The position numbers were made by a program, and so were the translations under genes. Below the pieces are notes generated by a model. It worked only from the letters and a program-made list of their open reading frames with translations. It was not told the DNA's origin and did no database searches. Below are positions 3,264 through 4,033 of a stretch of DNA of 18,553 bases, one piece after another; position 1 is the first letter of the stretch; every line of letters starts with the position of its first letter. The stretch is from a virus (taxonomy: Duplodnaviria; Heunggongvirae; Uroviricota; Caudoviricetes), in IMG/VR virus record IMGVR_UViG_2541047776_000006. The stretch is one strand, 5' to 3'.

Positions 3264-3551
3264 TTACCGCCGTAAGTGCTCCGGCTTCCTCCACTGGTAA
3301 GTATTTTTCGCGCTCTCCCTCCGTTGTTGAGAACGGCGACGGTATGCCAGCAACTCAAGAACTCTGGTTCGTATGTTGCGCATATCCACGCCGTTAAGCT
3401 CAATACCGTCACGGCACATTACCTCAGCCACCACACGCGCGTAATTTTCAGCGGTGACTGTATCCGGCTGCTTGGCCTGTTCGTCAGCCAGCTGGCTGAT
3501 TCCACCAGCACGGCGGATTAATCGCAGTATTTCAGATTCGGTCATTATCAT
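3264..3551 (-). CDS. Hypothetical protein; possibly an N-terminal remnant of a terminase large subunit
   Basis: 95-aa ORF whose start overlaps the stop of the upstream Nu1-like gene (ATGA at 3548-3551), as Nu1 and A do in lambda. The N-terminus (SEILRLIRRAGG) loosely resembles the lambda gpA N-terminus (SQVNRLRHFVRAG). Too short for a functional TerL. Confidence 0.35.
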   Translation of the reverse strand: MIMTESEILRLIRRAGGISQLADEQAKQPDTVTAENYARVVAEVMCRDGIELNGVDMRNIRTRVLELLAYRRRSQQRRESAKNTYQWRKPEHLRR

Positions 3552-4033
3552 GCCTGTTTTGCGACCTCATTCACTACGTCATTTTTTACCATCCGGCTGA
3601 TAATCTGATTACACAAATCGTCAATAATTGACTGCACTCTGTTTACTGCCATCGGTTTAAGCCCGGCATCACGTGCCAGAATATTGGGGAGTTTTGCCAG
3701 TTCCTCGCTTACGATTTCCCCCCATATAGCCATCTCTTTTCGCACATCATCGGCGGGTATGAGTTGCGCCGTTTCCTGTTCGAACTTGAGGCGCTCACGT
3801 TCGGACTGATACCAGGCCTTACGGTCATGTGGCTCCATTTCTTCCAGTGATGCCGGAACGGGAAGATCAAGAAAACAGGTCAGAATGTCAGTCACCCGAT
3901 AGAGTTTCAGCTTGTCATGCCCTCCGGCTGGCTGGATGTTTTTCAGCCTTGCCGCCGCAGTCTGACGACATATTCCCGCTATCGCCGCCAGTTGGTTAAT
4001 GTTCAGCATCAGATTTTTCAGTTCTCGATCCAT
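3548..4033 (-). CDS. Phage Nu1-like small terminase subunit (DNA-packaging protein)
   Basis: The ORF track gives 3548..4120. The start is better placed at the internal ATG 4033..4031, which has GGAG 7 nt upstream, giving 161 aa from MDRELKNLMLNINQLAAIAGICRQTAAARL. N-terminal HTH and overall layout resemble lambda Nu1 (compared by eye from memory). Confidence 0.55.
   Translation of the reverse strand: MDRELKNLMLNINQLAAIAGICRQTAAARLKNIQPAGGHDKLKLYRVTDILTCFLDLPVPASLEEMEPHDRKAWYQSERERLKFEQETAQLIPADDVRKEMAIWGEIVSEELAKLPNILARDAGLKPMAVNRVQSIIDDLCNQIISRMVKNDVVNEVAKQA

Follow-up and report, generated by a model that had tools for sequence, protein, structure and literature searches.

A small terminase gene and a cos site at the packaging end of a chromosomal island

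The DNA analysed here is IMG/VR virus record IMGVR_UViG_2541047776_000006, a stretch of 18,553 nucleotides (nt) that is referred to as the window. It is identical to part of the chromosome of Escherichia coli Es_ST80_L1_NDM_10_2017, in which the record annotation places an island between thiM and rcnR. The interval 3264–4033 belongs to the distal, DNA-packaging end of this island, where a cos site is followed by a small terminase gene (terS, termed terS_sat for the satellite copy) and by a gene for a protein of 93 amino acids (aa). An original prediction, made from the sequence, had seen in the interval an intact Nu1-like small terminase retained amid decayed packaging genes. Two genes are located there, the second of which is translationally coupled to the first through an ATGA overlap.

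The open reading frame (ORF) of terS_sat is intact. A ribosome-binding site, GGAG, lies 5 nt before the ATG, and the upstream region (4034–4190) has a GC content of 28.7% compared with 45.4% for the window; the clean frame, ribosome-binding site and AT-rich upstream DNA of the original prediction were all confirmed. Profile searches likewise place the product among the terminase small subunits, with 122.9 bits against Pfam DUF1441 (cut-off 35.1) and an E-value of 6.7e-57 against PHROG 141 ('terminase small subunit'). TerS_sat is 66–71% identical to the annotated TerS proteins of phi458, Ayreon and mEp460 and to an unannotated homologue in PhiR40_1. When one genome per species was considered (77 gammaproteobacterial loci), a lambda gpA-type TerL gene directly followed the homologue in approximately 68 loci, and the portal gene and a ClpP-type protease/capsid gene came next where the contig was long enough. 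In contrast, terS_sat is followed by the unrelated 93-aa ORF. Among viral structure predictions, small terminases match best (E 1e-6 to 1e-4), and the predicted architecture, a winged helix-turn-helix (wHTH) with a helical part, is that of the phage homologues. As judged from sequence and predicted fold, TerS_sat and the cos-type small terminase of mEp460/Gifsy-like lambdoid phages are truly homologous.

The relation to lambda Nu1 is confined to one domain. No match of TerS_sat to Pfam Phage_Nu1 was found at E <= 1, and the PDB Nu1 chains were matched neither by phmmer with the single protein nor by a 46-sequence profile search. An hhalign comparison with Nu1 gave a probability of only 26%, over the wHTH. 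The two proteins belong to different Pfam families and are approximately 20% identical in a forced alignment. The designation 'TerS' is well supported, whereas 'Nu1-like' holds only for the fold of the DNA-binding domain.

A cos-like site, which the original prediction had envisaged in the flanking noncoding DNA, is located just upstream of terS. On the minus strand, the junction between TTTACGGGTCCTCCCGGTGGGGTGGCCTGCCACG and GGGCGGGAGCGGCGCGG aligns with the lambda junction between TTTACGGGTCCTTTCCGGTGATCCGACAGGTTACG and GGGCGGCGACCTCGCGG. The terS ATG is bp 197 of the predicted left end; the Nu1 ATG of lambda is bp 191. A nearly identical cos block precedes terS in PhiR40_1, phi458 and prophage L091, and the adjacent upstream cosQ, cosN and cosB that characterize a cos-type small terminase are present by alignment. 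The GC-rich hairpin next to cosQ (4261–4283) forms the left edge of the segment that phages and satellites have in common in the alignment. In the related, intact island of Ecol_224, the capsid gene is preceded by another cos-like copy (L002 15818–15902) with 92% identity to window positions 4187–4271. The Ecol_224 capsid gene thus lies between two cos sites, an arrangement that recalls cos1 and cos2 of EcCICFT073.

Mosaic structure of the terS gene

Two kinds of C-terminus occur among the TerS homologues. The phage kind ends in an acidic tail (...DQIALRVTEAGADDEEELQQEE), and the satellite kind ends differently (...NQIISRMVKNDVVNEVAKQA). Both kinds occur with several N-terminal types, the satellite kind with at least four. 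In TerS_sat, residues 1–94 form a helper-type DNA-binding and central half, and residues 95–161 (67 residues) form a satellite-specific half that is presumed to bind TerL.

The mosaic is visible in the nucleotide sequence. The window and prophage L091 are 94–100% identical from position -206 relative to the terS ATG, in the cosQ region, to approximately +243. Past +243, the identity is 52–68% in the 3´ half of terS, and no relationship is detectable beyond the stop codon. The comparison of a type-B satellite with phi458 gives the same pattern, whereas the pattern is inverted when two satellites, or two phages, that differ in type are compared. For both of the satellite-phage pairs that were compared, one of type A and one of type B, the exchange boundary lies within one common 50-nt interval.

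The proteins divide in the same manner. Residues 1–94 of TerS_sat are identical to those of prophage TerS P0014, which joins the N-terminus of the window protein to a phage C-terminus and is encoded in lambdoid prophages before TerL, the portal and the capsid fusion. Conversely, P0009 joins a phi458-type N-terminus to the satellite C-terminus and belongs to satellites, where its gene is flanked by the capsid fusion and the 93-aa gene. Both in phages and in satellites, the cosB allele changes together with the N-terminal type, and cosB of the window is 94–98% identical to that of prophage L091.

The C-terminal half of the satellite type is divergent. Over residues 96–150, it is 49% identical to the phage consensus, compared with 82% on average for the proteins of phages from many genera. 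Of the positions with at least 90% conservation in phage TerS, 14 are substituted in this half and only one in the N-terminal half. The satellite-type C-terminal half is absent from 50,697 phage records, among which the best match reaches 58% and the last 11 residues never align.

By these alignments, the stretch from cosQ to approximately codon 94, which comprises cosN, cosB and the wHTH and central parts of TerS, is an exchangeable 'specificity cassette' that the island has in common with particular prophages. The remaining 67 codons are, on the same comparisons, a satellite-only lineage that is linked to the 93-aa gene. TerS_sat therefore shows full-length homology to the mEp460/Gifsy/PhiR40_1-like TerS proteins (DUF1441, PHROG 141) and occupies the same place relative to cosQ, cosN and cosB, but it lacks the following TerL and the acidic tail, and its C-terminal 67 residues belong to a separate lineage. 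In the literature searched, no description was found of a chimeric TerS that combines a cassette identical to that of the helper with a motor-facing half specific to satellites; the papers found on DUF1441 concern phage genomes, and none concerns satellites.

A second satellite lineage, found in Phytobacter (L057), an uncultured Enterobacteriaceae (L060) and Kosakonia (L082), also carries a primase, a capsid fusion and a DUF1441 TerS, arranged in this order as in the window island. Its TerS is 41–43% identical to that of the window and has a phage-like acidic C-terminus, and the islands lack the 93-aa gene. This composition suggests an independent capture of the same phage module.

The 93-aa gene downstream of terS

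The original prediction had taken the ORF after terS for a truncated N-terminus of TerL. A TerL remnant was considered and rejected: BLASTP of this ORF gave E-values of 3.5 against the PhiR40_1 TerL and 2.9 against lambda gpA. No match was obtained by tblastn against the 50,697 phage records. The ORF belongs instead to a tightly conserved enterobacterial family of 93–97 aa that comprises 729 clusters at 90% identity. An 82%-identical homologue is the last gene of islands resembling phage-inducible chromosomal islands of the capsid-forming kind (cf-PICIs; L008–L011 9001–9294), where it follows a complete HK97-type TerL with a 4-nt overlap. The packaging genes of those islands are unrelated to those of the window. 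The ratio of non-synonymous to synonymous substitution rates (dN/dS) between the window copy and the copies in those islands is approximately 0.19. The 93-aa gene is a bona fide satellite gene.

In both island types, the gene and the stop codon of the terminase gene before it overlap, and the C-terminus of the 93–97 aa product is strongly basic. In a cf-PICI preprint, mutation of 'hypothetical gene 1792' of EcCIEDL933 lowered transfer; that gene may be a homologue of the 93-aa gene. A search with the 95-aa ORF against 1.8 billion representative proteins returned only 39 close relatives, most of them fragments, and nothing informative at a greater distance. The AlphaFold2 model of this ORF is poor, with a pLDDT of 66.

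Proposed packaging mechanism

For lambda, phage 21 and P22, recognition of the packaging site is assigned to the N-terminal domain of TerS and binding of TerL to its C-terminal part, a division that natural and engineered TerS chimeras obey (PMC9026076, PMC6739421). The interval is probably the packaging module of a 9.8-kb satellite, in which a helper-type cassette is joined to a satellite TerL-facing half, and it would act as follows. Upon induction by a helper, the island would be excised, replicate from its own primase and origin, and form concatemers. A helper head of 42–45 kb would hold four island copies of approximately 9.8–10.6 kb. The TerL, proheads, tails and portal of the helper would serve to cut and package island DNA at the helper-type cos. 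The satellite TerS would bind the same cosB as the helper TerS and could enter terminase assembly, where its altered TerL-facing half, without the phage acidic tail, would probably perturb or bias the helper terminase in favour of the satellite. The satellite would gain no private DNA recognition site. The effect of the divergent half could be a weaker, a stronger or a redirected contact with TerL; alternatively, this half could interact with the 93-aa protein. A matching helper should have a terminase that recognizes island DNA. Mobilization by a helper that supplies TerL and capsid, as the original prediction had proposed, is plausible, with the integrase, AlpA, primase, origin, cos and terS all intact.

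The main argument that the satellite-type half is under selection is that it has been kept behind at least four cassettes, together with the common 50-nt boundary of the two pairs. Known satellite packaging hijacks use either a private TerS together with a pac site that is likewise private, as in the pathogenicity islands of Staphylococcus aureus (SaPIs), or an Rpp protein that re-targets the helper TerS to a different cosB. The arrangement described here suggests a third design, in which the recognition cassette is copied exactly and divergence is found only in the motor-facing half of TerS. If the divergent half is functional, it would offer a naturally occurring parallel to the classic experiments on lambda-21 TerS chimeras. 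The island family offers a testable handle on the subversion of TerS-TerL contacts, and the matching of cassette alleles between satellites and prophages would predict helper range from sequence alone.

Several points weigh against this reading. Residues that are invariant in the family (L112, P116, L119, R121, D122, Q134 and D138) are kept in the satellite C-terminal half, and with them TerS_sat may bind TerL normally as an ordinary extra TerS. The dN/dS of the satellite-type half is 0.3–0.7, a value derived from only 2 synonymous and 1–5 non-synonymous differences. Since the TerS of islands L057 and L060 has an acidic C-terminus of the phage kind, a satellite lifestyle does not require the altered half. 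The cos segment is found in one place in the genome record, with no second copy, which indicates that no cognate helper is resident. No promoter-like site was found in a sigma-70 scan upstream of terS. The nick positions in cosN are predicted from the lambda alignment only, and we infer the mechanism, including binding, interference and transfer, from domain logic and comparative genomics.

A bolder form of the proposal is possible but doubtful. It holds that the satellite C-terminal half, possibly with the co-translated 93-aa protein, would be a new kind of cos-terminase hijack, a helper-matched decoy on the shared cosB that re-wires or blocks the TerS-TerL contact. The exchangeable cosB and DNA-binding half would then re-tune the satellite to the resident lambdoid helper, a component of the same claim and equally doubtful.

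Among satellites, the SaPI small terminase and the Rpp proteins come closest in function, and both have to be weighed as models. The original prediction had proposed that packaging is redirected to the satellite's own DNA, which in SaPI style would mean that the satellite TerS reads an island-only packaging site and steers helper TerL onto satellite DNA and off phage DNA. An intact TerS beside a packaging site does resemble the pac-type SaPIs (PMC6739421, PMC6092414), whose TerS is likewise a satellite-encoded homologue of the helper protein that presumably works with helper TerL, and the gene is conserved. However, SaPIs rely on a satellite-specific pac site and headful packaging, whereas the island is of cos type and carries the site of the helper, as far as a comparison at the sequence level goes. 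Its cosB differs from the prophage allele at a handful of positions, no private recognition site is visible, and the type-B allele pairs in the same way. The match of both cosB and the DNA-binding half of TerS to those of the helper argues against a specificity switch of either the SaPI or the Rpp kind, and redirection in SaPI style is very unlikely. A decoy resembling Rpp would operate by other means: TerS_sat would form mixed oligomers with helper TerS through the N-terminal and central half, and these, poisoned or retargeted, would block phage packaging. The gene takes the position of rpp, just downstream of cos in a Gram-negative phage-inducible chromosomal island (PICI), as described in PMC9026076. 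The Rpp of EcCICFT073-type PICIs is also a small wHTH protein, encoded in an element with the general architecture of this island, and the identical N-terminal halves of TerS_sat and prophage TerS make co-assembly plausible, with the TerL-facing half divergent. Nevertheless, this explanation is unlikely. TerS_sat matched neither of the PDB Rpp chains 6HLK and 6HN7 at E <= 10 by phmmer or profile search, RppC is absent from its top fold matches, and membership of an Rpp-type family, which the original prediction had contemplated, was not borne out. Furthermore, Rpp pairs with a cosB unlike that of the helper and thereby changes DNA specificity; in the island, cosB and the DNA-binding domain equal those of the helper, which leaves no obvious target for retargeting.

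Two explanations dispense with a function for terS_sat. The 5´ half of the gene might be a passenger that is carried along as cos is repeatedly refreshed by recombination with resident prophages, with helper cos alone driving packaging and the protein itself adding little. The common block does pass from cosQ into terS without a break, PICIs that carry a helper cos alone are known (SaPIbov5 and EcCICFT073; PMC6092414), and the dN/dS of the 3´ half rests on too few substitutions to decide. In opposition to a passenger role, every satellite examined has an uninterrupted reading frame, the 3´ half is unchanged behind its different 5´ cassettes, the boundary recurs at one place in the two pairs compared, and terS is coupled to a conserved downstream gene; we consider this role distinctly unlikely. 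That the locus is a decaying lambdoid prophage remnant in which TerS survived by chance is barely credible. A capsid/protease pseudogene and a prophage-identical cos region and terS 5´ half would fit such a remnant, but the element has the architecture and size of a PICI and precise att repeats, the same module is intact in relatives at other integration sites, and tail, lysis, portal and TerL sequences are absent.

The capsid gene of this copy

The protease module is broken, as the original prediction had stated. The window lacks approximately 1.2 kb that encodes the capsid half, and the remaining protease half is a recombinant of two copies. An intact ClpP-protease/major-capsid fusion of 637–638 aa occupies this place in relatives, in Ecol_224 at the same integration site and in others at other sites. 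In the MS1679 and 19KM1776 islands (L089, L090 8058–13063), two capsid-cos-terS modules lie in tandem, the inner one decayed. By sequence comparison, the window island looks like a deletion derivative that arose through recombination between two ClpP copies, with an overlap at 4356–4638; the exact junction occurs in only 4 of 5,426 genomes. A 262-aa membrane-like ORF lies between the tandem modules of MS1679 and 19KM1776, and the MS1679 island is located at a tRNA-Ile gene and not at thiM.

The description of the remaining packaging genes as decayed, and of TerS as selectively retained among them, did not hold. The late module of the island family consists of the capsid fusion, cos, terS and the 93-aa gene and is intact in relatives. 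TerL or portal genes are never carried by this family, and decay in this copy is limited to the protease/capsid fusion. For EcCICFT073, the capsid gene has been reported to be dispensable for transfer (PMC6092414, as summarised in PMC10111431), and its loss here therefore need not abolish mobilization. Because the gene is dead in this copy, any particles would be made of helper capsids.

Architecture and integration site of the island

The features of the island are listed in Table 1.

Table 1. Features of the island and of its packaging end, in window coordinates.
Feature	Position	Strand	Remarks
att core, left copy ATACGGGTATTTCT	2551..2564	.	Adjoins 3´ half of the thiM TPP (thiamine pyrophosphate) riboswitch; exact 14-bp direct repeat with 12336–12349
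Terminator-like hairpin	3045..3070	-	3´ of the 93-aa gene; the late operon probably ends here; consensus match only
Conserved PICI gene	3264..3551	-	ORF of 95 aa, 93 aa from the PGAP start at 3545; PHROG 1561, function unknown
terS_sat, DUF1441-type small terminase	3548..4033	-	161 aa, ATG start; intact ORF
cosB-like region	4034..4217	-	From cosN to the terS start codon; type-A allele, common to prophages L091 and L093
cosN-like 12-mer GGGCGGGAGCGG	4218..4229	-	Aligns with lambda cohesive end GGGCGGCGACCT
cosQ-like nonamer ACGGGTCCT	4252..4260	-	Equals the lambda sequence, with the same spacing to cosN
GC-rich hairpin GGGCGGCTATAGCCGCC with T6	4261..4283	-	-16.2 kcal/mol; terminator-like, at the end of the capsid gene
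Pseudogene, ClpP-like prohead protease/major capsid fusion	4286..4949	-	Frameshift, internal stop, capsid half deleted
HEPN-domain accessory gene	5288..6001	+	Pfam HEPN, 24.6 bits; variable slot between origin and capsid gene
Iterons, GGTGAACAGT repeats	6181..6389	.	Repeat families D4, D6, D7 and D8; putative replication origin beside the primase gene
P4-family primase/replication initiator	6392..8209	-
AlpA-family regulator	9749..9973	-	Pfam Phage_AlpA, 55.7 bits
Tyrosine integrase	10928..12148	-	Record annotation
att core, right copy ATACGGGTATTTCT	12336..12349	.	Adjoins 5´ half of the thiM riboswitch and the thiM promoter

By its gene content, the island is a phage satellite of the Gram-negative PICI type that would depend on a helper, and the satellite nature assumed in the original prediction was thus upheld. 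The evidence comprises the integrase, AlpA, the P4-type primase, the iterons, the capsid-gene remnant, cos and terS, and neither the annotation nor family models reveal tail, lysis, portal or TerL genes in the island. Gram-negative PICIs are marked by an integrase, AlpA, a primase with an adjacent origin, a length of approximately 10–20 kb and the lack of lysis and tail genes, all of which agree with the island; its length slightly below 10 kb is explained by the capsid deletion. Published Gram-negative PICIs have the same architecture, and such islands often carry a capsid gene and some a terS homologue (PMC6092414, PMC10111431). The placement of the iterons also agrees with the position of the origin in these elements (PMC6092414). 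The backbone of integrase, AlpA and primase is similar in cf-PICIs of the EcCIEDL933 type, with which the island has the 93-aa terminal gene in common at 82% identity. However, cf-PICIs encode all HK97-type head and packaging functions (capsid, protease, portal, connectors, HNH, TerS and TerL), whereas this island family carries only the protease/capsid fusion and TerS, and the island is therefore no cf-PICI.

The island is 9,785 bp long and is inserted inside the aptamer of the thiM riboswitch, as indicated by the position of the att repeat, the split riboswitch and the uninterrupted rejoined site. The 5´ half and the promoter lie beside rcnR, and the 3´ half lies beside thiM, 9.8 kb apart. 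When the outer flanks were joined in silico, a 296-nt thiM-riboswitch-rcnR site was obtained. Of the 5,426 complete E. coli genomes, 4,728 have this site without interruption; among the matches listed, the identity is 100% and the annotation reads riboswitch, thiM and rcnR. No Rfam family matches the window at the gathering threshold. The two riboswitch halves (2504–2638 and 12286–12385) give sub-threshold TPP matches of 33.4 and 20.1 bits compared with a gathering threshold of 54.3. The regulation of thiMD may be altered in carriers of the island, and the insertion in a riboswitch adds an aspect of host physiology.

Just inside the island ends, a 70-nt direct repeat of 86% identity is located at 2628–2697 and 12181–12250, separate from the 14-bp core. 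This repeat may represent integrase arm-type sites or the relic of an earlier junction.

The remaining genes are annotated as encoding a DUF6387 protein, located between the integrase and AlpA, and an Icd-like protein and a DUF4222 protein, located between AlpA and the primase. The HEPN gene, which may be accessory or defence cargo, occupies a slot (4950–6130) from which it is absent in Ecol_224 and in which it is present in MS1679 and 19KM1776. PADLOC returned nothing for the HEPN protein, the 93-aa ORF, a small ORF at 4967–5200 or the DUF6387 protein, and no NCBIfam model matched TerS_sat, the 93-aa ORF, the HEPN protein or the DUF6387 protein. In contig JARKNJ010000001.1 of GCA_031665325.1, two related satellite copies (L094 and L095) lie approximately 21 kb apart, and one of them is directly followed by another integrase-AlpA-primase set, which suggests tandem satellites.

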